Source: Candidatus Goldiibacteriota bacterium HGW-Goldbacteria-1
Lineage (GTDB): Bacteria; Oederibacteriota; PGYV01
NCBI GenBank assembly: GCA_002839855.1
Contig: PGYV01000006.1
Location: 16,367-80,366, forward strand
Direction of reading: 5' to 3'
DNA length: 64,000 bases
A model generated the notes under the pieces. It did no database searches, was not told the DNA's origin, and saw nothing but the letters and a program-made list of their open reading frames with translations. Numbering within the stretch: position 1 is the first letter of the stretch; the number at the start of each line of letters is the position of its first letter. Shown here piece by piece: positions 6,131 through 30,932 of this stretch. Position numbers and translations under genes: made by a program.

Positions 6131-8191
6131 ATGGCTAAAAAGCACCTGATTGTTTTAACGTTAATTCTTATGGCTGCGTTTATTTACGCTTCGCCTGTTT
6201 CTGAAAACGGGCAGCTTAAAGTAAACGGGCTTCAGCTTGTTAATCAATGCGACACGCCGGTGCAGCTGCGCGGCGTTTCCACGCATGGTATAGGGTGGTT
6301 TGACGGCTGTTATACTCAGGCTGCGGTTCAGTACGCGGCAAATACAATGAATTCGGATTTGTTCAGGATTGCAATGTATGTAAAAGCTTCGGAAAGCGGC
6401 TATCTTCAGGACCCGGCGTATTGGACATCGCGCGTTAACCAGATGGTGGACTGGATAGGCGCGGCGGGAATGTACGCTTTAATTGACTGGCATATATTAA
6501 ATGATGACCCGAATAATTTTATAGAAGACGCAAGGATATTCTGGACTGCAATGGCAACAGAACACAAGGATAAAAACTTTGTGATATACGAATTATGCAA
6601 TGAACCTAACGGCGTGACCTGGGCTCAGATAAAAGCTTACGCCGAAGATATTATTCCGCGTATAAGGGCCATTGACCCGGACGCGGTTATTGTAGTCGGT
6701 ACGCCCAACTATTCGCAGCTGGGCGCCGATGTTGTAAATGACCAGATACTTGAACCCAATATAATGTACGCGTTTCACTTTTACGCGGGTACACATTCCA
6801 CGTCCATGCTTATACCATATATAAACCAGATTCCGATATTTGTATCCGAATGGGGCGCAAGCAATGCTTCCGGCGACGGCGGCGACAATTATCCGCGCGC
6901 GCAGCAGTTTATGGATATAATGTCCGGCGTTGACACGATAAACAATCCGCAGGGCATAAAACTAAGCTGGGCTTCATGGTCGTATTCCGACGACAGGGAC
7001 TGGGCAACTGACCAGCACTTAAAATCCACGTCGCATCTTACTTTAAATTCCTGCAGCACAACCGGCTGGACAATAGCAAATTTAAGCACGGCAGGGCAGT
7101 TTGTTGCCGCTAATATTACCAATCCTGCAAGAAATTTTATCTGCTGGACTGCAACTGAAACTCCTGTCGGCGACCCGCATACGCCGACAGTTACAAGGAC
7201 TGTAACGCCCACAAGAACAATAACTTCGACGCCTGTCCCTGATTTAATTTATAACGGCGATATCGCGGGTTATACACTTGCGGACGGCAGCGTCAACAAC
7301 GCGGCAATGTTTTCTGAACCGGCGGCGGGGAACACGGGCAATGCGATGCAGATTGCTTACACTGCGGGAGGATGGCAGGAAGCCCGGTGGATGACAACTG
7401 CAAGGCCCAGAAATGACAGGACATATATAAGTATTGATGTAAGGGCGACGGCAGGCACGATAAGCCAGCTGCTTTTTATACCTGATTGGAACACATGGAC
7501 AAACCGCGCAACAGATAATGATTTTAACGTTGCCGCATACGTGCCTGGCGGTGTGATAACAACAACATGGAAGACCGCGTATATCCCGCTTTCAAAAGTT
7601 TATAACCCGTATCCGACAACCCTTGGGACAATGAGGTTTATCTCTAACAGCGCCATATATACAGTTCAGATTGATAATATAAAGTTCTTTGACGCGTCAG
7701 TATGGACGCCCACAGTCACAAGGACAAGGACACCCACAAGGACAGCTACAAGGACAAGGACGCCCGCGGCAACAATGACTGCAACCCCCACTGTTACAAT
7801 GACTCCGCAGGCGACTTATACGCCCACGTTGACGGCTACTGTTTATGTGGAACCTACGGTTACGCCCACTATTTCCGCCAATATAAGGATAACAATAGGC
7901 GATCATTTTCCTTATCCCAACCCTTCAAACGGAAGAAGCGTTAATATACGTTACCAGATAAAGACCGGTTTCGCGAAAAATGTTAAAATACATATATATA
8001 CGCTTGGCGACAGAAAAATAGATATGATAAAGGATTCTGACAGCGCGCCCGGTTTTCACGATGTGCTGTGGCGACCCAAACAGCAGCTTTCCAACGGAAT
8101 GTACTATTATATAATGGAGGCTGACAACGGGCGGACAGGGGACAGATTAAAACGCGATGTGGTTCAGGGTGCGATTGTAGTGCTTAAATAA
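6131..8191 (+). CDS. secreted GH5 endoglucanase (cellulase) with an unclassified CBM-like domain, T-X linkers and a conserved C-terminal sorting domain
   Basis: A signal peptide is present. GH5_2 hallmarks are VIYELCNEPNG (acid/base), FHFYAGTHS and FVSEWG (nucleophile). The CBM-like domain lies at about 7244-7700. The C-terminal domain YPNPSNG..YYYIMEADNG..VVLK lies at 7880-8188. Confidence 0.9.
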   Translation: MAKKHLIVLTLILMAAFIYASPVSENGQLKVNGLQLVNQCDTPVQLRGVSTHGIGWFDGCYTQAAVQYAANTMNSDLFRIAMYVKASESGYLQDPAYWTSRVNQMVDWIGAAGMYALIDWHILNDDPNNFIEDARIFWTAMATEHKDKNFVIYELCNEPNGVTWAQIKAYAEDIIPRIRAIDPDAVIVVGTPNYSQLGADVVNDQILEPNIMYAFHFYAGTHSTSMLIPYINQIPIFVSEWGASNASGDGGDNYPRAQQFMDIMSGVDTINNPQGIKLSWASWSYSDDRDWATDQHLKSTSHLTLNSCSTTGWTIANLSTAGQFVAANITNPARNFICWTATETPVGDPHTPTVTRTVTPTRTITSTPVPDLIYNGDIAGYTLADGSVNNAAMFSEPAAGNTGNAMQIAYTAGGWQEARWMTTARPRNDRTYISIDVRATAGTISQLLFIPDWNTWTNRATDNDFNVAAYVPGGVITTTWKTAYIPLSKVYNPYPTTLGTMRFISNSAIYTVQIDNIKFFDASVWTPTVTRTRTPTRTATRTRTPAATMTATPTVTMTPQATYTPTLTATVYVEPTVTPTISANIRITIGDHFPYPNPSNGRSVNIRYQIKTGFAKNVKIHIYTLGDRKIDMIKDSDSAPGFHDVLWRPKQQLSNGMYYYIMEADNGRTGDRLKRDVVQGAIVVLK

Positions 8192-8205
8192 CGGCAGGAG
8201 ATAAA

Positions 8206-10473
8206 ATGCGTAAATTTTACCTGACACTCACCGCTCTTTTATGCTGTTCGGTTTTTCTTTCAGCCGCTGACAGCGATATTGTTTATTGCGGTGCAGGATA
8301 TAAACCTGTAATGTCAAAAAAGGCATCGGTTAATGTGCCCTGCACCTCGTTTCAGGTGCTTAGGTCATCGGATAATGCATCTGTTTATTCCGGCACTGCA
8401 TCAGCGCCTGTATATACTTCTGACAGCGAAAGAAATGTTTATGTTCTGGACTTTTCGCCGCTTACAACGCCGGGCAATTATTACATAAATGTGGACGGGG
8501 TGGGCAGGACGCAGGGTTTTGAAATTTCAGAAACGGTTTTTGAGGATGTTTTTAAAAAAGTTTTTCTTGGAATGTATATGTGGCGGTCCGGAACCGCGGT
8601 TTCTTATACTTACGGCAGTACAACATATTCCTGGAACGCCGGACATATGGCTAACGCGAATTTATACTATTCAAACGAGCCGTATTCAAATTCATACAAG
8701 GACGGCACAGGCGGCTGGTATGACGCTGGAGATTACGGAAGATACCTGGGAAATGTGGGGATAACAGTATGGCCTATGTTTATGGCGTGGGAAGATTTCG
8801 GCGATTCAATAAATGCCATGACATACGGGATTCCTGATTTAAATCCGGGGATGCCGGAATATCTTCAGGAAATAAAATGGGAAACCGACTGGCTGTTTAA
8901 AATGATGTACGCGGACGGCAGCGGTAAAATTCACGATAAGCTTACAAGCAAAAATCACACTTCAATGAACGTGTTGCCCGCGAATGACACTTCGCTTATG
9001 TATTTTCTTCCGTGGAGCACGTATGCCACTTCTAATTTCGCCGGCACGATGGCAATGGCGGCAAGATACTTCGCGCCCTATGATTCGTTTTACGCGCAGG
9101 AATGCCTTGACGCCGCGGAACTTGCGTTTCAGGCATTAATAGACAATCCGTCAATAGTAACATTTGACGCTTACGGGCTTGGTTTTTACACCGGCATTTA
9201 TAACGGAGATGACGCGGGCAACAGGATATGGGCGGCCGCGGAACTTTTTGCGTCCACGGGAAAAACGGTTTACCGCGATTATTTTGAAGCAAGGGCTTCA
9301 AGCGGATATATGCAGTCTATATATGACTGGAATAATCTTTTAGATATGGCTATGCTTACTTATTATTTCTGCGACAGGCCGGGTAAGAATTCGGTCATTA
9401 CGGACAGGATAAGAACCAACACGATAAATACAGCAAATGGGATTGTTTCATCCGTTAATTCTCATGGCTATGGAAGGTCAATGTCAAATCACTGGTGGGG
9501 AAGTAACGGCGTGGTGGCAAGGATGTCTGTGATTTTATATTCGGCTTTTAAAATGACAGGGGATTACAAATATAGAAATGCCGGCTTTGAAATATTAAGC
9601 CATCTGTTTGGCAGAAATCATTTTGGACGCTCTCAGGTAACGGGTATCGGCACTAACCCCGCGCTTTATCCGCATGACAGAAGGTGTAATGCCGACGGAA
9701 TTGCCGCGCCGATACCGGGGTATCTTGTGGGCGGTTCGCATGGGTCTAATAATACGGATGACCCGATAATTGGAGCAATGCCCGCTGGGCTTCCAAAGGC
9801 CGCGTATTGGGTCGATAATGTGGGTTCTTATTCATCAAATGAAATTGCCATTAACTGGCAGGCAGGGCTGATATACGGTGTTGCTGCTTTTTTAAAAGAC
9901 GGGCCGGCGCCTACGGTTACGCCTACCGTTACGGTAACCCTGACAAGAACAAACACTCCTATTGTATCGCCGACGCCGACAAGGACACTTACAGCGACAA
10001 AGACAGCCACAAGGACAATTACTTTTACAAGCACAGCTTCGCCTACGCCTACAATTACGTTGACATCAACGGTTACGCCGTTTGTGACATCCACGCCCAC
10101 GTTTACCATAACCATGACGTCAACAATAACAATTACAGCCACCCCAACTTCCGAAATTCCTTCGGTTTATATAACGGTGGGTGAACATTTTCCTTATCCA
10201 AACCCGTCAAAAGGAAATGAAATTAAAATAAGATATCAGATAATAAAAGGGCTGGCAAAAACAGTTAACATTCATTTTTACACCCTTGCAGACAGAAAGT
10301 TTGACACGATAAAAGAGAATAACATAGGTATAGGATGGCATGAAGTTTTGTGGAAGCCCAAAAAGAAACTTGCGTCCGGAATGTATTATTATGTCATTGA
10401 AGCGGACAACGGGAAGTTTGGTGGATTAAATAAGAAAGCTATAAAGCAGGGTGCGGTTGTGGTAATAAAATAG
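8206..10473 (+). CDS. secreted GH9 endoglucanase with N-terminal Ig-like domain, T-X linker and C-terminal sorting domain
   Basis: The GH9 signature GGWYDAGDYGRY is present. A CelD_N-like N-terminal domain precedes it. The linker PTVTPTVTVTLTRT lies at 9903-10155. The C-terminal domain lies at 10156-10470. Confidence 0.9.
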   Translation: MRKFYLTLTALLCCSVFLSAADSDIVYCGAGYKPVMSKKASVNVPCTSFQVLRSSDNASVYSGTASAPVYTSDSERNVYVLDFSPLTTPGNYYINVDGVGRTQGFEISETVFEDVFKKVFLGMYMWRSGTAVSYTYGSTTYSWNAGHMANANLYYSNEPYSNSYKDGTGGWYDAGDYGRYLGNVGITVWPMFMAWEDFGDSINAMTYGIPDLNPGMPEYLQEIKWETDWLFKMMYADGSGKIHDKLTSKNHTSMNVLPANDTSLMYFLPWSTYATSNFAGTMAMAARYFAPYDSFYAQECLDAAELAFQALIDNPSIVTFDAYGLGFYTGIYNGDDAGNRIWAAAELFASTGKTVYRDYFEARASSGYMQSIYDWNNLLDMAMLTYYFCDRPGKNSVITDRIRTNTINTANGIVSSVNSHGYGRSMSNHWWGSNGVVARMSVILYSAFKMTGDYKYRNAGFEILSHLFGRNHFGRSQVTGIGTNPALYPHDRRCNADGIAAPIPGYLVGGSHGSNNTDDPIIGAMPAGLPKAAYWVDNVGSYSSNEIAINWQAGLIYGVAAFLKDGPAPTVTPTVTVTLTRTNTPIVSPTPTRTLTATKTATRTITFTSTASPTPTITLTSTVTPFVTSTPTFTITMTSTITITATPTSEIPSVYITVGEHFPYPNPSKGNEIKIRYQIIKGLAKTVNIHFYTLADRKFDTIKENNIGIGWHEVLWKPKKKLASGMYYYVIEADNGKFGGLNKKAIKQGAVVVIK

Positions 10474-11082: not shown

Positions 11083-14000
11083 TTGAAAAAACTAACATTG
11101 CTGACTATAGCCGTTTTGTTTATAACAGTTAATATTTTTTCCGCACAAAATAATGCCATCCGCGTGGACATGGAGGGTTATAGAACCCTTGGTAATAAAT
11201 ATGTAATTCTTGTCGGGAATTCTGCTACATCATTCACCGTTAAAACTGTTTCGGGCGGTACAACTGTATTTACCGGCACTTTTTCGGCGGCTGTTGCCGA
11301 TGCCGCGTCCGGTGATTCTGTTAAAACAGGCGATTTTTCCGCGCTTACAACACCCGGCGAATACTACGTAGCGGTAACAGGGTTGGGCGAATCTTATAAC
11401 TTTAGAATATCCGATACCATTCATACTGACACTTTAACCACTCTTATGCGGGGATTTTACGGGCAGCGCTGCGGCGCATCTGTAACCTTAACTCACAGGG
11501 GAACCACTTTTACCCACGGCGCGTGCCATTTAAATGACGGAACTTACGCGGGTTCAACCGGATTAAACGGGACAAAGAATACAACCGGAGGCTGGCACGA
11601 CGCCGGCGATTACGGCAAGTACGCCTTAAACTGCGGCGTAACAAACGGCGAGCTTCTTCTTATGTACGAAAAATATTACGATGCGCTTGAACACATTAAT
11701 CTTGGGCTTCCATATTCCGGCGGCGCGCTGCCTGACGTTCTGACCGAAATTAAATACAACCTTGACTGGCATAAAAAAATGCAGCACACAAACGGCGGTG
11801 TTTTCCACAAACTTTCAAACGGCTTTCCTCAGAATATTATGCCGACGTCAGATACTGATACAAGGTATATCTTTGCAATATCTTCCGCCGCGACCGCGGA
11901 TTTTGCGGCTGTAATGGCAATTGCGGCGCGCGTTTTTGATATGTATGACGCCGCGTACGCCGCGGAATGCCTGACAGCCGCACAAAACGCGTGGGCTTTT
12001 TTACAGGCAAACCCCAATATTGTCCCGGCCGGCGGTTTTACTGACGGCAGTATGGGCGGAATTTACGGCGATACCGATGACAGTGATGAAAGGTTATGGG
12101 CGGCGGTTGAACTGTTTAACACCACAGGCGAGGCGCAGTATAATACTTATGTTGCCGCGCATTATACGGATAGAACGCTTACATTAATGTCTGACCTTGG
12201 CGATGATTGGAAAGAACTTCATCCCGTTGCTTATATGTCATATATGCAGTCCAAACAGCCATCGGTAAATACCACCGTGGTTAACGCTATGAAAACGTTA
12301 TTTCAGCCGCAGGTTAACACGTTCAGGAACAGGGTGCAGTCAACGAACGGGTATAAGTTTGTACTTAACTCCGGCGATTATTACTGGGGCTCAAACTCTG
12401 TTGCTTTAAACAGGGCGATACGGCTTGTTGCGGCATCGGAAATATTCGGAGATGATACTTATAAAGACGCCGCGGAAGAAGTGCTTCATTATATCCTTGG
12501 CAGAAACGCCATGAATAAATCTTATCTTACTTACGTCGGCGAGGTTTACACGAACCAGCCTCATCACCAGCCGTCTGCCGCGGATGGAATTACGCCGCCC
12601 TGGCCCGGGATTCTTGCCGGAGGGCCAAATGAATATTACGATACAATAGGGGCGCCGGCAAAATGTTATGTTGATGATGCAGGGAATTACACTTCCAACG
12701 AAGTGGCAATAAACTGGATGGCGGCGTACGCTTATGTGCTTGCGGCTTTTGTTCCGACGCCGGGGCCTACAAATACGCCTACCAATACCCCCACGTCTTT
12801 ATGCCACCCGCTTACATGTACTTTTACGCAGACAAGCACACCGACTGTCACTGCCACGCCGATAAATGTTTTAAGGGTAAATGTGGCGGGGGCTCAGGTA
12901 ACCACCGGCGGAAATGTCTGGCTTGCCGACAAAGCATATATAGCGGGAAGCTGGGGTTATAACACACCCGCAAATACCGGCGACCGTACCGCGCTTGGAA
13001 ATATTGTAAACAACACAACAGATGATGTTTTGTATCTTACGGAAAGATGGGGCGCGGCGCTTTCTTATACTTTTGACCTTGCAGACGGCTGGTATCTTGT
13101 CACGCTTAAATTTAATGAAATGTTTGTAAACAGCGCCAATGCCAGGCTGTTTAATATACTTCTTGAAGGGCAGGTTGTGGAATCGTCTTTTGACGTTTAT
13201 GCCGTTAATAACAGCCAGGCATACGCGGTTGACAGAAGTTATCCGGTATTGTTAACAGATGGAAAACTGAACATTGACCTTACGCAGGTAACCGAAATGT
13301 GTATTTTAAACGCGCTGCGGATAGAATCATATTACCCTCCAACCGCCACTTATACATACACTCCTTTAAACACAAATACGTTCACAAATACCGCGACAGC
13401 AACCGCTACATTTACAAATACATCCACAAGCGAATGCTATCCGCTTACATGTACGTTTACAAATACCAATACTTACACAAGCACACAAACGCCTACAAAC
13501 ACGCCTGTGCCCACTCCGATACGCGTAAACTGCGGAGGCGCGGCTTATCTTGACGGCGCGGGGAACACATGGGCTGCGGATTATGGGTTTACCGGCGGGA
13601 CTGCCACATCTGTAACTGACGCGATTGCAGGCACAACAGATGACACGCTTTATCAAAGCGAAAGGTACGGAAACCCGTCATATACTTTTACCGTTCCAAA
13701 CGGATATTATGATATTACGTTTAAGTTCGCTGAAACATGGTTCAACGCGGCAGGGGAGAGGATTTTTGACGTAAGTGTGGAGGGAGTAACTGTAATTGAC
13801 AATCTTGACTTATATGTATCAGCTCCCGGAGCAATGCGCGCGTATGATGTAATTATATCAAATGTTTTAATTACGGACGGGCAGATAAATATAACCGCTT
13901 CATCCGCGGTTGACAGCGCCAACTTCCGCGCCATTGCAATAATCCCCGCGGGCCCGGCGCCTACATTCACATATACAAATACGGTGCCTCCGACAAACAC

Positions 14001-15168
14001 ACATACGAACACAAATACCGATACTGCGACAGCCACATCCACTTTCACAAACACTTATACGGCAACAGATACCGCCACAAGCACATATACTTATACGCAT
14101 ACCAGTTCACATACCGCCACAAATACACCGGAGCCTCCCACAAATACACATACCGCAACTGATACCGCGACATATACTTATACGAATACAAATACATCCA
14201 CTTTCACATATACGCATACACATACGGCAACGCATACCAATACGGAAACCCCGACAGACACAAATACCGCAACAATTACAAACACTCCGCCGCCGGGCAG
14301 CACAAACACGCATACTTTCACAATTACATCAACTCCGTCGGATACTCATACCGCCACATATACTTATACTTACACATTTACAAATACGGCAACGCAGACC
14401 TATACCGAAGTGCCTCCGACCTTTACAGGTACTTTCACGGAAACGTTTACGTTCACATACACTTCAACTTACACGCACACGGCAACAATAACAGATACGG
14501 TTCCGCCGGGAAGCACGTCCACTAACACCCCCACGCAAACGCTGATTCCGTCAAATACCCACACGCATACGGCCACTGAAACAAGTACTTATACAAACAC
14601 TTATACCGCCACAAATACTTTTACGGAAACAAACACGGTTCCGCCGGGAAGTACAAACACTAACACTCCCACAGAAACGCTGATTCCGTCAAACACTGAT
14701 ACCGCTACACATACACACACGCATACGTTTACAAATACATACACGGCTACAAGTACACCTGTTATTCCGACTGATACGCATACGGCAACGGCAACGGTTC
14801 CGGCGCCCACAGCCACGATTACAAATACTCCCTCTTCCATTATCGCGGAAGACGCAAAACAGATAATTTCTGAAGTTATGATTTATCCAAATCCTTATAA
14901 TTCTAAAATTTCTCCGGCAGGACCCTTTGTCATATTTAAACTTGCGAAGAATGCCGCAGGAGTGTCGCTTAGAATATATTCATCTTCATTCAGGCTTGTG
15001 AAAAATATTGAATTTGAAGGAGTATTTACGGCAGGGTTGAACAGGGCGCATACCCGCGCAGAAGATTTTAAAAATCTTTCAAACGGCACTTATTATTTTG
15101 TCCTGACAGCGGACGGTGCATCAGGAAAAGCCAAAAGCAAAGCGGATAAGATGATTGTCTTAAAATAG
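11083..15168 (+). CDS. secreted GH9 endoglucanase with two malectin-like CBMs, a ~300-aa alternating-Thr region and C-terminal sorting domain
   Basis: A TTG start follows RBS AAGGAGAAA. GGWHDAGDYGKY marks the GH9 domain. Two INCGG / NCGGAAY...ERWG domains resembling malectin/CBM57 lie at about 12850-13320 and 13516-13945. A (T-X)n region lies at 13950-14830. The C-terminal domain lies at 14850-15165. Confidence 0.85.
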   Translation: MKKLTLLTIAVLFITVNIFSAQNNAIRVDMEGYRTLGNKYVILVGNSATSFTVKTVSGGTTVFTGTFSAAVADAASGDSVKTGDFSALTTPGEYYVAVTGLGESYNFRISDTIHTDTLTTLMRGFYGQRCGASVTLTHRGTTFTHGACHLNDGTYAGSTGLNGTKNTTGGWHDAGDYGKYALNCGVTNGELLLMYEKYYDALEHINLGLPYSGGALPDVLTEIKYNLDWHKKMQHTNGGVFHKLSNGFPQNIMPTSDTDTRYIFAISSAATADFAAVMAIAARVFDMYDAAYAAECLTAAQNAWAFLQANPNIVPAGGFTDGSMGGIYGDTDDSDERLWAAVELFNTTGEAQYNTYVAAHYTDRTLTLMSDLGDDWKELHPVAYMSYMQSKQPSVNTTVVNAMKTLFQPQVNTFRNRVQSTNGYKFVLNSGDYYWGSNSVALNRAIRLVAASEIFGDDTYKDAAEEVLHYILGRNAMNKSYLTYVGEVYTNQPHHQPSAADGITPPWPGILAGGPNEYYDTIGAPAKCYVDDAGNYTSNEVAINWMAAYAYVLAAFVPTPGPTNTPTNTPTSLCHPLTCTFTQTSTPTVTATPINVLRVNVAGAQVTTGGNVWLADKAYIAGSWGYNTPANTGDRTALGNIVNNTTDDVLYLTERWGAALSYTFDLADGWYLVTLKFNEMFVNSANARLFNILLEGQVVESSFDVYAVNNSQAYAVDRSYPVLLTDGKLNIDLTQVTEMCILNALRIESYYPPTATYTYTPLNTNTFTNTATATATFTNTSTSECYPLTCTFTNTNTYTSTQTPTNTPVPTPIRVNCGGAAYLDGAGNTWAADYGFTGGTATSVTDAIAGTTDDTLYQSERYGNPSYTFTVPNGYYDITFKFAETWFNAAGERIFDVSVEGVTVIDNLDLYVSAPGAMRAYDVIISNVLITDGQINITASSAVDSANFRAIAIIPAGPAPTFTYTNTVPPTNTHTNTNTDTATATSTFTNTYTATDTATSTYTYTHTSSHTATNTPEPPTNTHTATDTATYTYTNTNTSTFTYTHTHTATHTNTETPTDTNTATITNTPPPGSTNTHTFTITSTPSDTHTATYTYTYTFTNTATQTYTEVPPTFTGTFTETFTFTYTSTYTHTATITDTVPPGSTSTNTPTQTLIPSNTHTHTATETSTYTNTYTATNTFTETNTVPPGSTNTNTPTETLIPSNTDTATHTHTHTFTNTYTATSTPVIPTDTHTATATVPAPTATITNTPSSIIAEDAKQIISEVMIYPNPYNSKISPAGPFVIFKLAKNAAGVSLRIYSSSFRLVKNIEFEGVFTAGLNRAHTRAEDFKNLSNGTYYFVLTADGASGKAKSKADKMIVLK

Positions 15169-15485: not shown

Positions 15486-15609
15486 CCTTTGTTAAACATT
15501 TAACCGCAACTTTTTAACGTTAAAACTGTCAAAAGTATGGTAATATACAGGAACGTGATTTTTCATTATGAAATGGCTTAAAATACCATGCAAAAAAGAG
15601 GAGATTTCA

Positions 15610-21800: not shown

Positions 21801-22139
21801 ACTGTAACCCCTGTGATACAGGAAGGGGATAAACAGAAGATTACGGATGTAATGGTTTTCCCGCACCCATATAACGCTTCCAAAAATCCTTACGCCGGCA
21901 TAAAGTTTAACCTTTCCAAAAGCGCGGCTGTGGTAAAGATAAGATTATATTCATCAGCTTTCAGGTTGTTGGAAGAATCGGACATAGCAAAAAACTGCCA
22001 CCCGGGCAGTAATATCGGCGCGATAAGCGGAAGAAGGCTGTCAACAATGTCCAACGGGACGTATTATTTTGTCCTGATCTCGGAAGATAATGCAACAGAG
22101 GTCAGAAGTAAAGTGGATAAGATGATAATAATGAAGTAA
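18850..22139 (+). pseudogene. GH9 endoglucanase - CBM9-like - T-X repeat - C-terminal-domain gene interrupted by two frameshifts
   Basis: Three consecutive ORFs in different frames together give a complete protein. The pieces are a signal peptide + Ig-like N-terminus (frame 1), a GH9 domain with GGWHDAGDFNKY plus a CBM9-like domain IDGSLDEAFW (frame 2), and TFTNTATVPTN repeats plus the C-terminal domain (frame 3). The shifts fall at about 18990-19000 and at 21563/21564, where one 33-nt repeat unit is truncated to 16 nt. Confidence 0.7.
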
Positions 22140-22355: not shown

Positions 22356-22448
22356 CTCTTTCCTCAATTTTTCTGCTATAATCATCACAACTTTATTCAT
22401 TTGTTTTTGTCCAAAAACGAATTAACGCCTTATATCAAAGGAGAAAAG

Positions 22449-25400
22449 ATGACACTTAAACGGGTTTTAGCCACGGTATTTCTTCTTTCCATATTAAACT
22501 CTTACATTATTAGTGCGCCGATAACAGAGCAGATTATCGTTGACCAGATAGGGTACAGGACAACTGCCGACAAATGGTTTATGATTGCGGATCCAAGGAC
22601 GGGTTATAACGCAGCTGTTACATACGTTCCGGGTGCAAGCGTGGAATTAAGGCGCGCATCTGATGATATATCGGTTATGACTATCCCCGTTACCGCATGG
22701 AATGCCGGCGCGGAACATTCCCAGTCCGGCGATGTGGTATGGCAGGGAAATTTTTCCGCATATACAACGCCCGGTACTTATTACATATTTGACACCACAA
22801 ACAATACTCAGTCATTTGATTTTGATATTGCGGATGATACGTATAACACAATTCTTGAAAGCTCTGTTAAATCCTATTATTACCAGCGGTGCGGTACGGC
22901 AATTACCGGCGCTCACGGCGGTACGTGGACACATGCCGCTTGCCATACAACCACTCAACAGACTGCGCGCCTTTACGACGCATCACTTGGCGGCGATCAG
23001 GGAGCGGCAACCGCACGCGACATTACCGGCGGATGGCACGATGCCGGCGATTACAGAAAGTACACATCTTGGATGGCTGTTATAGTATGGGACTTGGCTT
23101 ATGCTTACGAATGGAACCCGGACGCATTTTCGGATGCTACCGGAATTCCGGAATCTAACAATGGCGTACCGGATATATTAGATGAAATAAAATGGGAACT
23201 TGACTGGCTTTTGAGAATGCAGGGTACAAACGGCGCGCTTTATTCAGGCGCATTTGTCGTGACAGGAATAAACGGAACAGGAAACGGTATCGGAGACCCG
23301 TCAACAGAGAACAGGCAGTATTTTTATGCCAACTATTCAACAGCGGCCACAGGTTCCGGCTGTTCGTCATTCGCAATAGGCGCTCGCCTTTTTGCGCCTT
23401 ATGAAGCAGCTTATCCGGGTTATTCCGCCGCGCTTCAAATCGCCGCCGAAAACGCGTGGGCTTATCTTCAGGCAAATCCTTCGAATATTACTTACAATCA
23501 CACCGGGTTTGATAACGCCAACGCCAATAAAGGGGTTGATGCTGACAGGGGGCACAGGATAATGTCGGCAGCGGAACTATACAGGCTGACCGGAGATACA
23601 GATTATAGAACTTATATTGACGATCACTACGATGACCCGCCTTCTACCGGAGTGCATAATCCGATTACAAGCGGATATTTTGAAACAAGCGGTTCTTATG
23701 AAATTCAAAGGGGATTGATTTCTTACTGCCTGGTGCCGGGCGCCACGTCATCAGTTGTAACCGCGGTAAAAAATTCAATCAATCAGGGTATACAGAACCA
23801 GGCTTATGGCCAGCGCAATAACGACCCATATAAGTCTTATACTTGGGATGGCCATCACTGTTGGGGTTCAAACGGAATCAAATCTGAATGGGGCAATCTT
23901 TGCGTCTTTGGTAATAAGTTAAATGTTAACGCCGGGCTTTCTGCGGCATATTTAAAAACAGGCGAAGAGTATCTTCATTACATTCACGGGCGCAACCCTA
24001 ACGCGTTTAATTACATTACACAGTCTCAGCTTTACGGCGCGGATAAGCCGATAAAGCAGATATATCACGGCTGGTTTCACCACGGCACGGTTTGGGATAT
24101 AAATCCAGCGCCCGGAATATTATCCGGCGGGCCTAACTGGTACTTTGTTCCTGACGCTTCGTATATAGGCACAATAGAACCGCCGCAAAATCAGCCGCCC
24201 ATGAAATCATATAAGGATTGGAACACAAGCTGGCCGGAAAATTCATGGGAAGTAACGGAAAATTCAACGGGCTACCAGTCGCGATACACTCTGCTTGCTT
24301 CGTTTTTCGCCTCTGCCGCGGGCCCGACAGCCACGCCCACATATACTTTTACCTATACCGATACAATAACACCCGGCGGGCCTACGTTTACTTTTACGCA
24401 CACGCCCACTGAAACATTTACAAACAGCCACACTTCCACACAGACGCCCACGCCTGTAAGCGTGCTTTTTAATACCTGCGATACCATAAATTACAACGGC
24501 GCCTGGACAGAAACCGCTTCTACAATATCCATCAACACAATTGAAACAGCGGCCATTACGCAGGGGACAGGCGCGCTTCAGATTGATGTTGAAACAATTG
24601 CGGCATGGCAGGACGGAATAGCATCACTTGGCGGTTTTGTTCCGTCAGACTGGAGCGGTATTGCACGCATTGAAATGGATGTTTATATCGCGCCCGGCGA
24701 AGAACCTTGGGGCGCGGCAGATACTTATCATCAGCTTGTATTAGTTGTGGATTCAAATGATACTTCAAAATGGTACAGGACTATTACAGCAAATCAGAAT
24801 ATTACAACAGGCATGAACCACCTGGTGTTTACAATAAACTGGGCACTTGATTTGGACCCTGACCCGATACTGCCCATAGACGCAATTAGCAATCTTACAT
24901 TTATTATAAATTCAGAGACAGGAAATACAGGGACGTTATATTTTGACAATATGATCCTTTATTCAACAGCATCCCCGGAGACACCAACCGCCACGATAAC
25001 ACTTACCCCGGTAATTTCCGCGACGGCAACAGCGACAGTTACAATGACAGAAGTATTATCCGCCACGGCGACATTAACAGCAACTGCAACAGTTACAATG
25101 ACAGAGGTGTTTTCGTTAACTATAACCAAGACGCCTACCGCGACAGTAACTGTAACACAGGATATATCATCCACATCGACGCCGACGGCAACGGCAACAG
25201 GAACTTCGACGGTGGAGGTCTCCGCTACATCAACACAGACAGCAACCCCCACGGCAACGCATACGGAAGAATTATCCGCGACAGTTACAAATACAATCAC
25301 TGTAACAATAACAATTACTTCGTCCTTAACTTTTACGGCAACGCCGACCATAACGCTGACGCCGGTTATTTCCGCTACAAATACGGTTACAAGGACAATT

Positions 25401-25871
25401 ACTATCACGTCATTTACATCTCCGACACCAACAGTTACGCCTTCTATAACAGCCACTTTTACACGTACAATCACGGTGACGGTTACTCCCACTGTTACAA
25501 ATATTATAAACACATTAACCCCAACCGTTACGCTTACACCGGCAATTCAGGAAGGGGATAAACAGGAAATTACAGATGTATTTATTTACCCGCATCCGTT
25601 TAACCCTGAATCTGACGAGATGAAAATGTTTATCAGATACAAGCTTTCAAAAAGTACAGGGTTGGTGAAACTGCGTTTATATTCGTCGGCGTTCAGGCTG
25701 ATAAGCGAAACAGAAATATCCCAAAACTGCACCCCGGGAATAAACACCGGAAGCGTAAACAGGGGAAAACTGAAAAACCTTTCCACAGGAACGTATTATT
25801 TTGTGTTAACCACAGATAACGGCGAAGGCGAAATTAAAAGCAAGGTGGATAAACTGATTATAATGAAGTAG
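22449..25871 (+). CDS. secreted GH9-family glycoside hydrolase with N-terminal Ig-like domain, an unclassified CBM-like domain, a T/V-rich linker and C-terminal sorting domain
   Basis: RBS AAAGGAGAAAAG precedes the ATG. GGWHDAGDYRKY marks the GH9 domain. The CBM-like domain lies at about 24465-24965. A TATxTxT linker lies at 24966-25540. The C-terminal domain lies at 25545-25868. Confidence 0.8.
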   Translation: MTLKRVLATVFLLSILNSYIISAPITEQIIVDQIGYRTTADKWFMIADPRTGYNAAVTYVPGASVELRRASDDISVMTIPVTAWNAGAEHSQSGDVVWQGNFSAYTTPGTYYIFDTTNNTQSFDFDIADDTYNTILESSVKSYYYQRCGTAITGAHGGTWTHAACHTTTQQTARLYDASLGGDQGAATARDITGGWHDAGDYRKYTSWMAVIVWDLAYAYEWNPDAFSDATGIPESNNGVPDILDEIKWELDWLLRMQGTNGALYSGAFVVTGINGTGNGIGDPSTENRQYFYANYSTAATGSGCSSFAIGARLFAPYEAAYPGYSAALQIAAENAWAYLQANPSNITYNHTGFDNANANKGVDADRGHRIMSAAELYRLTGDTDYRTYIDDHYDDPPSTGVHNPITSGYFETSGSYEIQRGLISYCLVPGATSSVVTAVKNSINQGIQNQAYGQRNNDPYKSYTWDGHHCWGSNGIKSEWGNLCVFGNKLNVNAGLSAAYLKTGEEYLHYIHGRNPNAFNYITQSQLYGADKPIKQIYHGWFHHGTVWDINPAPGILSGGPNWYFVPDASYIGTIEPPQNQPPMKSYKDWNTSWPENSWEVTENSTGYQSRYTLLASFFASAAGPTATPTYTFTYTDTITPGGPTFTFTHTPTETFTNSHTSTQTPTPVSVLFNTCDTINYNGAWTETASTISINTIETAAITQGTGALQIDVETIAAWQDGIASLGGFVPSDWSGIARIEMDVYIAPGEEPWGAADTYHQLVLVVDSNDTSKWYRTITANQNITTGMNHLVFTINWALDLDPDPILPIDAISNLTFIINSETGNTGTLYFDNMILYSTASPETPTATITLTPVISATATATVTMTEVLSATATLTATATVTMTEVFSLTITKTPTATVTVTQDISSTSTPTATATGTSTVEVSATSTQTATPTATHTEELSATVTNTITVTITITSSLTFTATPTITLTPVISATNTVTRTITITSFTSPTPTVTPSITATFTRTITVTVTPTVTNIINTLTPTVTLTPAIQEGDKQEITDVFIYPHPFNPESDEMKMFIRYKLSKSTGLVKLRLYSSAFRLISETEISQNCTPGINTGSVNRGKLKNLSTGTYYFVLTTDNGEGEIKSKVDKLIIMK

Positions 25872-26216: not shown

Positions 26217-29200
26217 TTGCTGCGCAGAACGCTTTTTACAGTGATGGTTTTGCTTGTTTTTATTACCGGCCTGCGCGCTTCTTCTATAATACCAACCCAG
26301 GCGTGGTCGCGCGATGTGGGCGCTTCCGGCTATACCGACGGCGCGCCTATAGGCGGCTTTGGCGCAGGAACAATTACATGGAAAAATAACGGGGATTTTT
26401 ACCTTTCACGCCTTGACATTGGCGCCGGCGATGAAACGGGAACTTTTACCGCGGCCAACACTAACTGCAAATTCTTTATGTATCAGAAACCGGCGTCAGG
26501 TGCGGCTACAGTACAGCGCCTTGATTCTGCTAACTTAGGCACAGGGCAGGCTGTTTACAATTCGCTTTTTCCTTTTGCGTGGGTCAACTATTCCGGCAGC
26601 AGGTTTAATGTAAAAGCAAAAGTGACGCAATACTCTCCGCTTATTCCCGAAGATTATCAGCGCGTAAGTTATCCTGTGGGCGTTTATGAATGGGAGCTTA
26701 CAAACCCCACAACCCAGAACTATGACGCGGCAATAATGTTAACGTGGGAAAATCCCTATGGTTCTTCGGCTTCGCTTGTAACGGACGGAAATTATACCGG
26801 CCTTGTTTTAAACAAAGCAGGCACAGGCACGCCAACGCTTGAAACACAGGGTGAGTTCTGCCTTGCGTCTTTATCATCGGCGAACGTTACAGTCACAAGA
26901 ATGTCAGCGGCAAACAGGGCCGCCCTTGAAACTGATTTTTCCACGGACGGCGCGCTTTCAAATACAGTCGGCAGCAACACAATAGGCGCGGTTGCTTTTA
27001 AGGTCACCCTTGCGCCGGGTCAGACAGTAAGGATTCCAATAATATTATCGTGGGACATTCCAATAACACAGTCGCAGTATAACGCCAAGTGGTACAGAAA
27101 ATATACGCAGCACTTTAACCGCCTTGGGACAAATTCGTGGGCAATAGCGCGTGAAGCGCTTGCTGACAGGTCTGTGTGGGAACAGAAACTTGATGAATGG
27201 ATTCACAGGATAACCGATAACCCCAATTACCCCGAATGGCTTAAATCCATGCTGTTAAATGAAATGTATATTTATTTTACCGCAGGCACATACTGGGAAG
27301 CGGGCGCTGCTTCAGGGCAGGCGGACAACCCTTCGGAAAATATGTTTTCGCATCTGGAATCATATATTTATGATTTTTACGGCACGTCAGACGTAAGGTT
27401 TTACGGTTCATGGGCTTTGTTCATGAACTGGCCGGAAATTGACAAGCAGTGCATAAAACAATTTTCAGACTCTGTTTACAACAACCGCTCTGACAGGCCC
27501 GCGGGATTAGGGACAACCGCGCACGATATAGGTTCAAGGGCCGATGTCTTTACACGCTGGAACGCTTACGTGTACAGGGATTCCACAAACTGGAAAGATT
27601 TAAATTCCAAACTTGTGCTTATGGTTTACCGCGACTGGCACTTAACAGGCAGGACAGATTCGGCTTTTCTTGATTACTGCTGGCAGCCGTGCAAAATAGC
27701 AATGGAAAAAACCGCAACGCAGGACGCGGACGGCGACGGGCTGCCGGATTCCAACGGTATAGACCAGACTTATGATGACATGGATTTAACAGGCGACACT
27801 TCATACTGCGGCGGGCTGTATCTTGCGTCATTGCTTGCGGCAAAAGAAATGGCGCTGGCAAAGGGCGAAACCGCGCTTGCGCAGACGTATCAGGACAGGT
27901 TTGATTTCGCGCAGCCCAACTTTGAATCACAGCTGTGGACGGGGCAATATTACAGGATTGATACTGACAGCCATGATCCAACCAGGATAATGTCAGACCA
28001 GCTGTGCGGTCAGTGGTATAACAAAGCGCTTGGGCTTCCCGGAATAGTGTCAGACGCCAATGCGGTTTCTTCTTTTCAGAAAATATACGATAATAATTTT
28101 GCCAAATTCGGGAACGGCACGCACGGTGTAATTAACGTAATGAACGCGAACGGTACAATAGACACAACTTCAAGCCAGACAGAAGAATGCTGGGTTGGCA
28201 CTTCGTGGGGCGTTGCCGCGGGAATGATTCATCAGGGAATGGAAGCGCAGGCTGACGATATAGGCCAGTCGCTTTTAAACACAATCTGGAATACCGGGCA
28301 GTACTGGTTTAGGACACCCGAAGCGTTCCGCGTTAACCTTACAATACCAAGGGCGTTTTATTATATGAGGGCAACAGCGGTGTGGGCTGTTAAACACGCG
28401 TATGATTCCGTACATCCCGTGCCCACTTATACGCCTTCGCCCACTGCCACGAATACCAATACCTGGGACCCCGCGTATCCAACATATACTTTTACCAATA
28501 CAGCAACGGCAACCAATACAAGTACTTATACCCATACAGCCACAGTAACGCCTACATTTGCCGACATCAGGGTAAACTGCGGCGGGGCGGCACACAATGA
28601 CGGAACGCATATATGGGCGGCGGATTATGGTTACACCGCGGGTACGGCGGCAGGGCCTTCGGGTGCGGTTGCGGGCGCGCCTGCAGGGCAGGGAACGCTT
28701 TATCAGACCGAAAGATGGGGAATGTCCGCGTACACTTTTAATAACATTCCTTTTGGCACTTATGATATAACTTTAAAATTTGCGGAGACGTATTCGGGCG
28801 CTTATTCTGTGGGTGCAAGGGTATTTGATGTATTTATAGAAGGCACACGCGTACTTGATGATTTTGATATTTTTGCCGAAGCCGGCGCAAGCACGGCGCT
28901 GGATAAAGTGTTTAGCGCCGTTCAGGTTTCTGACGGAGTCTTAAATATTACTTTTTCGGCATCTGTTGACAACGCTAACATTACCGCCATTGAAGTTGTG
29001 CTTGTTTCGCAGATGCCCACTTCAACGCACACTTCAACCGCCACGCGCACGCCCACCGCCACTTCTACTTATACAGCCACGGACACACAGACACCTGACC
29101 CGTTATGGACAAAGACTTTTACCTATACATATACGGACACGGCAACAAACACGGCAACTTATACTTATACAAATACATATACAATCACAAACACGCCTAC

Positions 29201-30932
29201 AGCCACGTTTACCGCCTCAATCACGCCCACGCGGATTGATGACCTTTTTATTGACTGCGCGTCCAATGATAATTACACAGACGGGCAGGGAAATATCTGG
29301 CTTGCGGATCAGGCGTATGGCGGCGGCAACGCGTGGGGATATGTCACAGCAGGTTCCACAAATGACTGGTACACCGGCGAGATTACCTTAACAAATGATG
29401 ACGAACTGTATCAAAGCGAAAGGTGGTCGGGCAGCGGCAATACACTTTTACAGTATAACGCGGATACGGGAAATGGGATGTTTGAAGTTGAACTTCATTT
29501 TACAGAAGGGTTCTGCACGGCTGCGGGATGCAGGCAGTTTAATATCGCCCTTGAATCGCTTACAGTTGAAACCAATCTTGATATATACGCGGAAACAGGC
29601 GCGCAGCGTGCGGCGCTTGTAAAAACTTATTACGTTGAAGTTACAGACGGCACTTTAAATATTAATCTTACTCAGGGAAGCGCGGACTGGCCGCTTATTA
29701 ACGCGATAAGGATAAGTACGTATTATCCTCCCACAAACACGCCTACAAATACAGTCCCCGAGACACCCACATATACTTTCAGCGCCACAAGTACGTTCAG
29801 TAATACGCATACATATACAAATACACAAACTTATACTCAGACTCCCGTATCTACAAGCACTTATACTGATACCGCCACGCACACTTACACGGACACATAT
29901 ACTGAAACCGCCACAAACACACCTGTAAATACAGACACAAATACAAACACCGCCACATACACGCATACATACACGGTAACTGATACAGCCACAGACACGC
30001 ATACAGCAACCATAACTTATACCCCTTCGGATACGGTTACAGGCACACCGCCGTCAACGCACACGTTTACGGACACGCCCACAGAGACTTACACATATAC
30101 ATTCACACAGACTTATACTGAAACTCCTGCAGACACGTTTACGCACACCCCTGAAAATACCAATACAAATACACCCCAGGATACTTTCACACATACTTAT
30201 ACAGCCACATACACTTATACTTCAACAAATACAAACACAAGCACAGAAACATATACGCCTACTATTACGAATACCTTTACAGACACAATTACACCCGGCG
30301 GCCCCACGCTTACGTTTACTGATACGCCGACAGAAACCGGCACACCCACGCACACACATACAAGCTCAAATACAAACACCGCAACAAATACAAACACAGT
30401 TACTGATACGGCGACAAATACAGCAACTGATACCGTAACCCATACAAATACATACACCGCAACATTTACCGCCACATACTCACAGACACCGTCATATACA
30501 TCATCACTTACAGAAACTCCTGTTTTTACGCAGACACACACGTTTACTTATACGGCCACAGAAACGCCTGTCTTTACAGCAACACCGACATATACAAAGG
30601 TTCCCGCGGACAAACAGGAAATTACAGAAGTACTGCCATACCCAAATCCGTTTAACCCGTCGCGTTATAACTATGTAAGGATATCATTTAAAATAGCGCA
30701 GCCGGATACAGAACGCCTTTCGTTGAGGATATATTCATCGTCATACAGATTAATAAGGGAAGTATCGTACGAACGTGATGCCCTTACGCAGATTGTGAAC
30801 AGGGGATACATACAATACGAATCCAAACACCTTGAAACTTTATCCAACGGCACATACTATTTTGTCCTTTTAGCCGGAGAACAGGGCGACGAAACAAGAA
30901 GCAGGGTGCAGAAGATTATAATTATTAAATAG
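26217..30932 (+). CDS. secreted GH116-like (GBA2/DUF608-type beta-glucosidase family) enzyme with two malectin-like CBMs, a ~290-aa alternating-Thr region and C-terminal sorting domain
   Basis: A TTG start follows RBS GGGAGAAAA. The N-domain motifs PIGGFGAGTITW and LFPFAWVNYSG resemble the GH116 N-terminal domain and are followed by an (alpha/alpha)6-like region. Malectin-like domains IRVNCGGAAH...TERWG and IDCASNDNYTDG lie at about 28565-29010 and 29240-29710. The C-terminal domain lies at 30600-30929. Confidence 0.6.
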   Translation: MLRRTLFTVMVLLVFITGLRASSIIPTQAWSRDVGASGYTDGAPIGGFGAGTITWKNNGDFYLSRLDIGAGDETGTFTAANTNCKFFMYQKPASGAATVQRLDSANLGTGQAVYNSLFPFAWVNYSGSRFNVKAKVTQYSPLIPEDYQRVSYPVGVYEWELTNPTTQNYDAAIMLTWENPYGSSASLVTDGNYTGLVLNKAGTGTPTLETQGEFCLASLSSANVTVTRMSAANRAALETDFSTDGALSNTVGSNTIGAVAFKVTLAPGQTVRIPIILSWDIPITQSQYNAKWYRKYTQHFNRLGTNSWAIAREALADRSVWEQKLDEWIHRITDNPNYPEWLKSMLLNEMYIYFTAGTYWEAGAASGQADNPSENMFSHLESYIYDFYGTSDVRFYGSWALFMNWPEIDKQCIKQFSDSVYNNRSDRPAGLGTTAHDIGSRADVFTRWNAYVYRDSTNWKDLNSKLVLMVYRDWHLTGRTDSAFLDYCWQPCKIAMEKTATQDADGDGLPDSNGIDQTYDDMDLTGDTSYCGGLYLASLLAAKEMALAKGETALAQTYQDRFDFAQPNFESQLWTGQYYRIDTDSHDPTRIMSDQLCGQWYNKALGLPGIVSDANAVSSFQKIYDNNFAKFGNGTHGVINVMNANGTIDTTSSQTEECWVGTSWGVAAGMIHQGMEAQADDIGQSLLNTIWNTGQYWFRTPEAFRVNLTIPRAFYYMRATAVWAVKHAYDSVHPVPTYTPSPTATNTNTWDPAYPTYTFTNTATATNTSTYTHTATVTPTFADIRVNCGGAAHNDGTHIWAADYGYTAGTAAGPSGAVAGAPAGQGTLYQTERWGMSAYTFNNIPFGTYDITLKFAETYSGAYSVGARVFDVFIEGTRVLDDFDIFAEAGASTALDKVFSAVQVSDGVLNITFSASVDNANITAIEVVLVSQMPTSTHTSTATRTPTATSTYTATDTQTPDPLWTKTFTYTYTDTATNTATYTYTNTYTITNTPTATFTASITPTRIDDLFIDCASNDNYTDGQGNIWLADQAYGGGNAWGYVTAGSTNDWYTGEITLTNDDELYQSERWSGSGNTLLQYNADTGNGMFEVELHFTEGFCTAAGCRQFNIALESLTVETNLDIYAETGAQRAALVKTYYVEVTDGTLNINLTQGSADWPLINAIRISTYYPPTNTPTNTVPETPTYTFSATSTFSNTHTYTNTQTYTQTPVSTSTYTDTATHTYTDTYTETATNTPVNTDTNTNTATYTHTYTVTDTATDTHTATITYTPSDTVTGTPPSTHTFTDTPTETYTYTFTQTYTETPADTFTHTPENTNTNTPQDTFTHTYTATYTYTSTNTNTSTETYTPTITNTFTDTITPGGPTLTFTDTPTETGTPTHTHTSSNTNTATNTNTVTDTATNTATDTVTHTNTYTATFTATYSQTPSYTSSLTETPVFTQTHTFTYTATETPVFTATPTYTKVPADKQEITEVLPYPNPFNPSRYNYVRISFKIAQPDTERLSLRIYSSSYRLIREVSYERDALTQIVNRGYIQYESKHLETLSNGTYYFVLLAGEQGDETRSRVQKIIIIK

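Follow-up and report, generated by a model that had tools for sequence, protein, structure and literature searches.

Eight secreted glycoside hydrolases at one locus

We examined a 64,000-nt stretch of contig PGYV01000006.1 (hereafter, the window) from Candidatus Goldbacteria HGW-1, a diderm bacterium, in which eight genes on the same strand encode secreted glycoside hydrolases (GHs): two of family GH5, four of GH9, one of GH116 and one of GH74. Seven of these genes are consecutive (g1–g7, 6131-30932) and the eighth, g8, lies apart at 40420-45270; these coordinates and the gene order, given in a first-pass annotation of the same DNA, proved real, and all large open reading frames (ORFs) of the window lie on the plus strand. 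The predicted products share one order, in which an N-terminal Sec signal peptide (judged by eye in all eight) is followed by a catalytic module, zero to three binding or accessory modules, a threonine-rich stalk of 61-372 residues and a C-terminal domain (CTD) of ~100 residues (Table 1). Stalk and CTD together form a conserved two-part module that occurs lineage-wide on hundreds of protein clusters. The set is best explained as the principal β-glucan depolymerization cluster of this bacterium.

The catalytic families named in the first pass were borne out by matches to Pfam and to solved structures in the Protein Data Bank (PDB). Both GH5 enzymes scored far above the PF00150 cut-off of 23.5 bits (g1, 153 bits; g4, 167 bits) and their translations carry the acid/base NEP and nucleophile glutamate motifs (LCNEPNG/ICNEPNG and VSEWG/CTEWG). 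The g1 domain matched Pfam Cellulase with E = 1e-44, and its nearest solved structures are the GH5 endoglucanases 6gjf and 2cks, with T. fusca E-5 and Bacillus Cel5A among the relatives. The true start of g4 is probably Met15, at 15610. The four GH9 enzymes scored 182-299 bits against PF00759 (cut-off 27.7), with E-values of 1e-66 (g2), 1e-88 (g3), 5e-77 (g5) and 4e-53 (g6); all four have a CelD_N domain (E = 2e-14 in g2) and the DAGD motif of the catalytic aspartate pair, and g2, g3 and g5 add NE(I/V)AINW, g6 having DAGD only. The closest solved structure to the GH9 domain of g3 is that of CelD from C. thermocellum (1clc, E = 6e-103).

GH116 and GH74 had initially been labelled as '-like' only. 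The g7 product, which is identical over 1571 residues to GenBank PKL91439.1 (CVV21_07595), matched DUF608 (E = 7e-100) and GH116N (E = 3e-52), with 179 bits for PF12215 and 335 bits for PF04685, and aligned to the TxGH116 structure 5bvu with E = 9e-138. For g8 there was no Pfam match, and residues 22-708 of its product aligned over their whole length with GH74 xyloglucanases of known structure (6p2m_A, E = 4e-252; 2cn2, E = 9e-144), with 16 further GH74 structures matched. On the strength of these PDB matches both are true family members.

A carbohydrate-binding module (CBM) had been expected on each enzyme, and g2 has none. Pfam supports the malectin and CBM9 assignments: malectin/CBM57 (PF11721, cut-off 23 bits) occurs twice in g3 (171 bits; E = 3e-50 over two stretches), once in g4 (90 bits) and twice in g7 (165 bits; E = 2e-48), and CBM9 in g5 (E = 2e-34). 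With 5 copies in three of the eight proteins, malectin is the most frequent CBM rather than the dominant one, as it had been called. A further shared domain of about 150 residues is limited to g1 and g8, whose copies of ~155 aa are 40% identical (E = 2e-25). It scored 15.1 bits (E = 0.025) against the CBM11 family PF03425, below the cut-off of 27, and E = 0.05 against CBM30; membership of CBM11 fails by the sequence cut-off and is not established. An AlphaFold2 (AF2) model of the g8 copy, made from a 7-sequence alignment, reached a pLDDT of 86.8, and its top four PDB matches were CtCBM11 structures (including 6r3m; E = 3e-7 to 7e-7, TM ~0.6), followed by CBM30. As modelled, this module, at first termed unclassified, is a β-jelly-roll of CBM11/CBM30-like fold and would work like a CBM11/30-type module. 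Such a fold fits the abundance of CBM11 in a related Goldbacteria genome, in which it is the commonest CBM (PMC7031533). The g6 module gave no Pfam match and has no detectable relation to that of g1 and g8. In g8, CxC and CPxxC motifs bracket each of two domains of ~160 aa, which share 30% identity and gave no Pfam match. A word-indexed search for homologues with the g1/g8 module profile returned none.

A threonine stalk joined to a conserved C-terminal domain

We built a hidden Markov model (HMM) from the eight enzyme tails. It found exactly eight strong copies in the window (E = 1e-32 to 1e-47) and a weak ninth at the end of a truncated surface protein gene (g0, ending at 921). The nine C-terminal tails are homologous, as the first-pass annotation had proposed, and alignment of the eight revealed shared motifs: YPNP close to the start, a central IYS..RL, G(T/M/A)YY(F/Y), and a terminal hhhh-K (h, hydrophobic residue). 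A word-indexed search with the CTD profile returned only 14 short fragments and was insufficient; an exhaustive search of 1.84 billion cluster representatives yielded 2192 at E<=1e-3, of which 343 reached E<=1e-10. All named members of these clusters are Candidatus Goldiibacteriota. Nearly all members with a terminal CTD end in [K/x]-hhhh-[K/R], and the 100 residues before that CTD are ~40% Thr, with 30-40 T-x-T pairs. In 43 full-length members the passengers were mostly carbohydrate-active enzymes (CAZymes), namely GH9, GH5, GH8, GH44, GH18, GH26, GH30, GH116 and RGL11, accompanied by CBM9, CBM11, CIA30 and malectin modules, Kelch proteins and a peptidase M64. The top multi-copy matches to the profile were subtilisin-family proteases (subtilases) with 12-15 tandem FlgD_ig/CHU_C domains, three of the four proteins scanned (P0015-P0018).

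Comparison with curated models placed the CTD near type IX secretion system (T9SS) cargo tails, for which the cut-offs are 23 bits (TIGR04183) and 27 bits (PF18962 or PF13585). The CTDs repeatedly matched, below threshold, TIGR04183, which models the T9SS type A sorting domain, as well as the PorU and PorZ models over their final ~100 positions (NCBIfam E = 1.6e-5 to 0.07); the best of the eight GH-borne CTDs was that of g2 (TIGR04183 E = 1.3e-4, 21.8 bits). The g0 CTD passes the cut-offs (CHU_C, 29.4 versus 27 bits; TIGR04183, 23.2 versus 23) and matched the C terminus of the PorZ model with E = 1.5e-10. An AF2 model of the CTD (pLDDT 88.5) is an 8-strand β-sandwich whose best PDB match by Foldseek is P. 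gingivalis PorU (6za2; E = 2e-4, TM 0.65-0.70, 20% identity). Like solved cargo CTDs, the domain is a β-sandwich of ~7-8 strands at the extreme C terminus of proteins with a Sec signal. It is a divergent member of the FlgD_ig/CHU_C/Por_Secre_tail superfamily and most probably works like a T9SS cargo tail; since it falls short of the curated thresholds, we refrain from classing it among genuine type A CTDs.

The threonine regions contain ~40% Thr, and for 80-90% of these residues position i+2 is Thr as well. Runs of the form (T-X)n-T, averaging 6-10 Thr and reaching 29 at most, make up 70-80% of the region; between them lie short, often Pro-containing spacers such as PVPP, VPPGS and LIPSN. A very long region had been ascribed to every enzyme; this applies to six, with 161-372 aa before the CTD, and not to g1 (61 aa) and g2 (89 aa). 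Interdomain linkers elsewhere in these proteins measure 33-140 aa. The X residues vary strongly by gene (N, F, A and R in g4; Y, N, H and D in g7; A, V and I in g6), and only the g4 and g5 stalks have clear tandem repeats in the DNA. That the Thr register is kept despite differing X residues and mostly non-repetitive DNA argues that the register itself is conserved and that selection acts on the stalk.

Related Goldbacteria also encode giant proteins of 1500-1800 aa with 25-27% Thr, several (T-X)n blocks and T9SS-like tails (L088:536-5053; L154:5444-10840(-)), and a 189-aa protein that consists of a signal peptide, stalk and CTD alone, with no passenger (L110:571-1140(-)).

The Bacteroidota O-glycosylation sequon D-[ST]-[AILVMT] was rejected as a general explanation of the stalks, with 0-6 occurrences per stalk and none in four. 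A polytopic membrane protein encoded at 1753-3321 may be a candidate stalk glycosyltransferase. It matched PMT_2 with E = 1.2e-4 (22.7 bits; cut-off 26.1) and the NCBIfam mannosyltransferase MT1671, a polyprenol-phosphate-mannose transferase model, with a sub-threshold E of 4e-7, and no PDB entry matched by sequence. Because both matches are below threshold, a role of this GT-C-like protein in stalk glycosylation is a lead only. Its gene sits between two genes for Thr-stalk proteins.

Neighbouring genes, intergenic repeats and assembly

Small membrane proteins and the 522-aa polytopic protein are encoded between g0 and a LacI-family regulator, which lies immediately upstream of the enzymes, as first noted, 28 nt from g1 (Table 1). 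A MarR–TolC–AcrB–AcrB efflux operon (31569-40010), itself outside the set of stalk–CTD enzymes, interrupts the cluster between g7 and g8; the same g7–efflux operon–g8 arrangement is repeated in an independent assembly (contig L084). Downstream of g8 follow MurJ, SppA, a TolB-like propeller protein and then a PorV-like/OmpA gene, and beyond these an IclR regulator paired with a 360-aa GH5 that lacks signal peptide, stalk and CTD and is probably a cytoplasmic cellodextrinase. This pair is kept in Goldbacteria with PorV identities of 87% and 49% (contigs L085 and L087). The housekeeping genes TGT, GalT, XseA, IspA and DXS lie 3' of the small GH5; among the species representatives of GTDB the DXS gene has one 84%-identical relative, all other matches being <=50%. 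Scans with promoter and terminator consensus sequences for operon structure gave signals no better than shuffles and were discarded.

Table 1 Positions of genes, modules and repeats in the window
Feature	Positions	Strand	Description
g0	1..921	+	3' end of 1161-aa surface protein gene (full length taken from contigs L001/L002); Thr-alternating linker, DUF11 (E 4e-9), canonical T9SS-type CTD at end
Polytopic membrane protein, 522 aa	1753..3321	+	GT-C-glycosyltransferase-like; weak profile matches
LacI-family regulator	5111..6103	+	LacI/Peripla_BP Pfam domains
g1	6131..8191	+	Signal peptide, GH5 endoglucanase, short linker, CBM11-like module (aa 368-525), linker, CTD
g1 linker and tail	7691-7873; 7889-8188	+	61-aa (T-X)n linker; CTD
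g2	8206..10473	+	Signal peptide, CelD_N Ig domain, GH9, linker, CTD; no CBM
g2 linker and tail	9898-10164; 10171-10470	+	89-aa (T-X)n linker; CTD
g3	11083..15168	+	Signal peptide, CelD_N, GH9, two malectin/CBM57 modules, stalk, CTD
g3 stalk and tail	13948-14844; 14866-15165	+	299-aa (T-X)n stalk; CTD
g4	15568..18546	+	Signal peptide, GH5, malectin, stalk, CTD
g4 stalk and tail	17128-18243; 18244-18543	+	372-aa (T-X)n stalk with 51- and 69-nt tandem repeats; CTD
g5	18826..22139	+	ORF 18962-21607 and tail ORF 21264-22139; signal peptide, CelD_N, GH9, CBM9, stalk, CTD
g5 stalk and tail	~21275-21824; 21837-22136	+	~190-aa (T-X)n stalk with 33-nt repeats; CTD
g6	22401..25871	+	Signal peptide, CelD_N, GH9, unclassified module, stalk, CTD
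g6 unclassified module	24447-24974	+	aa 683-858; 176 aa between GH9 and stalk
g6 stalk and tail	24960-25553; 25569-25868	+	198-aa (T-X)n stalk; CTD
g7	26217..30932	+	Signal peptide, GH116 β-glucosidase, two malectin modules, stalk, CTD
g7 stalk and tail	29712-30611; 30630-30929	+	300-aa (T-X)n stalk; CTD
MarR, TolC-like OEP, two AcrB-type RND pumps	31569..40010	+	ORFs, Pfam
g8	40420..45270	+	Signal peptide, GH74 (aa 22-708), CBM11-like module, linker, two Cys-bounded domains, stalk, CTD
g8 CBM11-like module	42643-43119	+	aa 742-900, then 140-aa linker
g8 Cys-bounded domains	43507-43998; 44011-44502	+	
g8 stalk and tail	44476-44958; 44968-45267	+	161-aa stalk; CTD
PorV/PorQ-family protein, 647 aa	52312..54255	+	Outer-membrane barrel, Ig-like (FlgD_ig) and OmpA_C peptidoglycan-binding domain; Pfam OmpA, FlgD_ig, PorV
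IclR regulator and 360-aa GH5	54291..56450	+	Pfam
REP type A, TGGTAGGCGCACCnTTnAnGGTGCGGCAGTTG	15209, 18620, 31053, 31220, 40062, 45323, 45393(-), 45755(-), 55184		
REP type B, TGGTAGACGCGGGTCTTTAGCCCGCG	10757-10782(-), 18676, 25919, 25982(-), 31116, 45449, 47565, 48186(-), 55229		
Microsatellites	10476-10584, 10870-10924, 18546-18587, 22321-22350, 55073-55162		

Two related hairpin elements resembling repetitive extragenic palindromes (REPs) each occur in 9 copies in the window, always intergenic and not restricted to glycoside hydrolase genes; shuffled sequence gave 0.00 and 0.05 copies. Type A, which can be written as TGGTAGGCGCACC...GGTGCGGCAGTTG, is often followed by type B ~45-60 nt on, and some copies form inverted pairs. 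The exact 26-mer was found in 108 metagenome stretches from digesters, sludge and similar samples, a distribution that allows it to serve as a lineage marker. Metagenome contigs probed with this 26-nt element gave us a sample of Goldbacteria DNA of 108 loci and 649 kb, which is far from complete; several of its loci hold orthologues of window genes at 76-91% DNA identity. Short microsatellites with units of 7-8 nt (also 16/24 nt), among them (GGCGGCAA) x13.6, are found in the spacers that follow g2, g4 and g5 and in the one that precedes the small GH5.

Two defects interrupt g5 in the window, one a gap of 17 nt at ~18994 and the other a frameshift at ~21570. The gene is intact as a single gene of 1126 aa in the independent assembly (L084:2543-5923), where its product reads signal peptide, CelD_N, GH9, CBM9, a stalk of ~190 aa and CTD, so both breaks are assembly artefacts. 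A contig from the Joint Genome Institute has an N-run at the first break, and the second falls inside 33-nt tandem repeats. The orphaned g5 CTD is annotated in GenBank as the 95-aa 'hypothetical protein CVV21_07585'. Many matches to the CTD profile are likewise fragments of 80-180 aa at contig ends, which probably stem from stalk repeats breaking short-read assemblies. The g4 product measures 912 aa in another assembly and 992 aa here, a difference in stalk length that may be real polymorphism or assembly collapse. Breakage of this kind leaves frameshifted genes and orphan CTD ORFs, and CAZyme counts in metagenome-assembled genomes may be distorted.

Proposed export and surface attachment, and known systems

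Since signal peptides and one homologous CTD are found on all eight enzymes, a common export or anchoring route is the natural reading. The first-pass annotation had already suggested such a route; its sequence basis stands, and the route itself we infer. After Sec export, the CTD would target each enzyme to a type IX-like outer-membrane translocon, and a PorV/PorQ-type barrel would receive the translocated enzyme. The enzyme would then be tethered at the cell surface, with the Thr stalk as an extended, possibly O-glycosylated spacer that keeps the catalytic and binding modules at a distance from the outer membrane. The outcome would be cell-bound cellulolysis, in which the surface GH116 and the cytoplasmic GH5 finish the cellodextrins. 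At least g1 and g2 are probably under the control of the adjacent LacI regulator. On balance we lean towards this account of CTD-dependent, T9SS-like translocation, tethering on the stalk and cell-bound cellulolysis. More doubtful, and offered as a tentative extension, is the idea that Goldbacteria run a functional type IX-like secretion and attachment system with their own subclass of cargo tail, in which the CTD would be obligatorily coupled to a stalk of up to ~370 residues that is glycosylated by the GT-C protein in the periplasm and forms a rigid bottle-brush tether.

Two candidate components of the machinery were identified. The 647-aa protein at 52312-54255 matched NF033709 with E = 5e-38 and 131.6 bits, above the family cut-off of 90, and scored below the cut-offs of the equivalog models T9SS_OM_PorV (51 versus 250) and PorQ (66 versus 220). 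Its homologues, named PorV/PorQ family [Candidatus Goldiibacteriota], are conserved across Goldbacteria within a block PorV/OmpA–IclR–GH5–TGT–YajC–GalT–XseAB–IspA that persists down to 49% PorV identity; in a distant relative the lipopolysaccharide (LPS) genes LpxB, LpxK and GT9 lie directly upstream. Its Ig domains were not detected by the CTD HMM. The protein is a core outer-membrane protein and no marker of the enzyme cluster. The second candidate is an ORF on the 7-kb contig L179 (L179:3557-7069) that matched TIGR04189, 'T9SS outer membrane translocon Sov/SprA', with E = 2e-43 and 147.9 bits. It represents the N-terminal 1171-aa part, cut by the contig end. L179 carries the genome-specific 26-nt REP element. 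It shares its activated-sludge assembly, and a similar coverage, with contig L141, where g6 and g7 have orthologues (82% and 90% aa identity, respectively) in the same order and with the same repeats.

On L179:601-7069 the SprA-like ORF is preceded by an O-antigen ligase-like gene (WaaL-like, Wzy_C), a heptosyltransferase gene (GT9) and, immediately before it, a 218-aa ORF without a Pfam match. In Porphyromonas, T9SS cargo is attached to LPS, which makes the LPS genes beside this ORF suggestive. Searches of the sampled Goldbacteria DNA for gldKLMN-like four-gene runs gave two candidates, both metabolic genes, and a search for the FGE-sulfatase motif gave one 349-aa lipoprotein with the motif only and no gldL-like neighbour.

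Several observations weigh against export by a type IX-like route. Goldbacteria are not known to belong to the Fibrobacteres-Chlorobi-Bacteroidetes (FCB) superphylum. T9SS has been described as confined to Bacteroidota or to FCB (PMC5445135; PMC12398890). The eight GH-borne CTDs remain below the curated cut-offs (at best 21.8 versus 23 bits for TIGR04183 and 16.9 versus 27 for PF18962), their fold is a generic Ig-like sandwich with modest Foldseek E-values, and FlgD_ig domains also occur internally in non-T9SS contexts. Weaker relatives of the PorV/OmpA fusion exist in Spirochaetia, Treponema and Elusimicrobia, lineages in which, to our knowledge, no T9SS is known; together with the conserved housekeeping and LPS synteny, this means that the gene is not specific evidence of T9SS. 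The SprA-like ORF falls below the full-length cut-off (147.9 versus 200 bits), belongs to a relative and not to this genome, has no Pfam SprA match (fn3 only) and gave no phmmer match to solved SprA or Sov (PDB hits were FN3/titin or nothing). PorK/L/M/N and PorU were not found, by length heuristics and NCBIfam over 14 candidates, in the window or the incomplete Goldbacteria sample of ~650 kb. For stalk glycosylation, the pointer is solely the sub-threshold GT-C match nearby.

The CTD could instead be a dockerin-like assembly or anchoring module on enzymes that take a different path across the outer membrane, for instance the type II secretion system, and build a cellulosome-like surface complex, its partner being a surface scaffold, S-layer, LPS or the PorV–OmpA protein. 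A conserved C-terminal module after a long linker on nearly all secreted CAZymes is indeed the cellulosomal layout, the tandem FlgD_ig-type arrays of large surface proteins are possible partners, the PorV-like barrel bears FlgD_ig/CHU_C-like domains of its own, and the eight CTDs miss the curated T9SS thresholds. We nevertheless regard this as unlikely: Pfam scans of all nine proteins detected no dockerin or cohesin family, the window contains no scaffoldin candidate, the nearest matches in both sequence and fold are T9SS cargo tails, and a Sov/SprA-like gene is present in a congener. Equally improbable in our view is release of the enzymes to the medium, in which case the CTD would be either an export tag that is cleaved off or a domain for folding or stability, and the Thr region an ordinary flexible PT-type linker, lengthened by replication slippage and with no particular function. 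Thr/Pro-rich linkers are common in cellulases, and the g4 and g5 stalks are tandem repeats in the DNA whose lengths differ between assemblies. T9SS cargos are sometimes released rather than anchored (PMC10202324). Slippage, however, does not sit well with a strict i/i+2 Thr register that is kept in non-repetitive DNA, in hundreds of members and with very different X residues, nor does an ordinary linker with a long stalk that always stands directly before the CTD when interdomain linkers span 33-140 aa; and Goldbacteria cells adhere to cellulose (PMC7031533).

Recent acquisition of the cluster as a foreign island, or its origin by chimeric misassembly, is very improbable and largely refuted. 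The bulk GC of the cluster, 0.45-0.48, exceeds the 0.40-0.44 of the flanks, and repeats did cause local assembly errors in g5. Yet GC at third codon positions is 0.44-0.52 in the catalytic domains and 0.42-0.54 in flanking housekeeping genes, and Thr codon use also matches, so that the bulk difference probably reflects amino-acid composition. Three independent assemblies, moreover, agree in gene order, as does a congener that has the same REP elements, and the stalk–CTD module is lineage-wide. The 'dedicated degradation island' of the first-pass annotation therefore survives as a cluster for β-1,4-glucan, xyloglucan and cellodextrin breakdown, and not as foreign DNA.

The glycoside hydrolase arsenal of HGW-1 is already known and first drew published attention to the phylum. 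The report on this genome proposes the name Goldbacteria, partly on account of its '12 putative cellulases' (Hernsdorf 2017, PMC5520028), Goldbacteria cells have been captured through binding to cellulose particles and three GH9 enzymes of a related species were active (Doud 2019/2020, PMC7031533), and by cellulase density a survey puts Goldbacteria alongside Fibrobacterota (PMC9765126); given this published richness, the arsenal is not new. Our results agree with the published repertoire in GH5 and GH9 richness, for the same genome, and in the abundance of CBM9 and CBM11. The stalk–CTD pair as a lineage-wide module is apparently undescribed: a term search of PMC7031533 found no mention of C-terminal, linker, threonine, malectin or GH116, and we found no literature pairing Goldbacteria with T9SS. 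The signature of a (T-X)n stalk and a CTD ending in hydrophobic residues and Lys/Arg marks the apparent secreted or surface proteome of an uncultured cellulolytic phylum and is usable for enzyme mining. Strict Thr alternation with variable, often aromatic partners may represent a new surface tether of interest for enzyme display. If the tentative extension above is true, this would be a non-cellulosomal way to build a cellulolytic cell surface that is also independent of polysaccharide utilization loci (PULs). The T9SS-type tails, PorV/Q barrel and Sov/SprA-like protein in Goldbacteria could bear on the origin and spread of T9SS.

With the cellulosomal enzymes of clostridia (C. thermocellum CelD and Lic26A-Cel5E; GH–CBM–linker–dockerin) the set shares catalytic families, g3 being closest to CelD, a g1/g8 module nearest to CtCBM11/CBM30, and a common C-terminal module after a linker; unlike them, it has no dockerin, cohesin or scaffoldin, its host is diderm and its C-terminal module is an Ig-like sandwich. 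With Bacteroidota PULs it shares co-localized CAZyme genes on one strand and an adjacent regulator; unlike PUL products, these are large multidomain CTD proteins and not lipoproteins, and scanning or reading of the window's ORFs of >=150 aa revealed no SusC/SusD pair. The closest parallel is with the T9SS-secreted cellulases and other T9SS cargos of Bacteroidota such as Cytophaga hutchinsonii, Flavobacterium johnsoniae and Porphyromonas gingivalis, which likewise combine a Sec signal with a β-sandwich CTD of ~100 aa that has YPNP near its start, a G-x-Y-Y/F motif together with a basic residue at or close to the C terminus. The best CTD matches are PorU and PorZ tails, a PorV/PorQ-family barrel is present and a congener has a Sov/SprA-like gene. 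The differences are that the phylum, a sister of Elusimicrobia and Firestonebacteria (PMC7031533), is outside the lineages in which T9SS has been described, that the eight CTDs form a subfamily of their own below the curated thresholds, and that PorV is fused to OmpA_C, with motor and ring components not found in the sampled DNA. In Goldbacteria the CTD obligatorily follows a long (T-X)n stalk, an arrangement that the T9SS literature we found does not describe for Bacteroidota cargos; like Bacteroidota T9SS cellulolysis, that proposed here would be contact-dependent.

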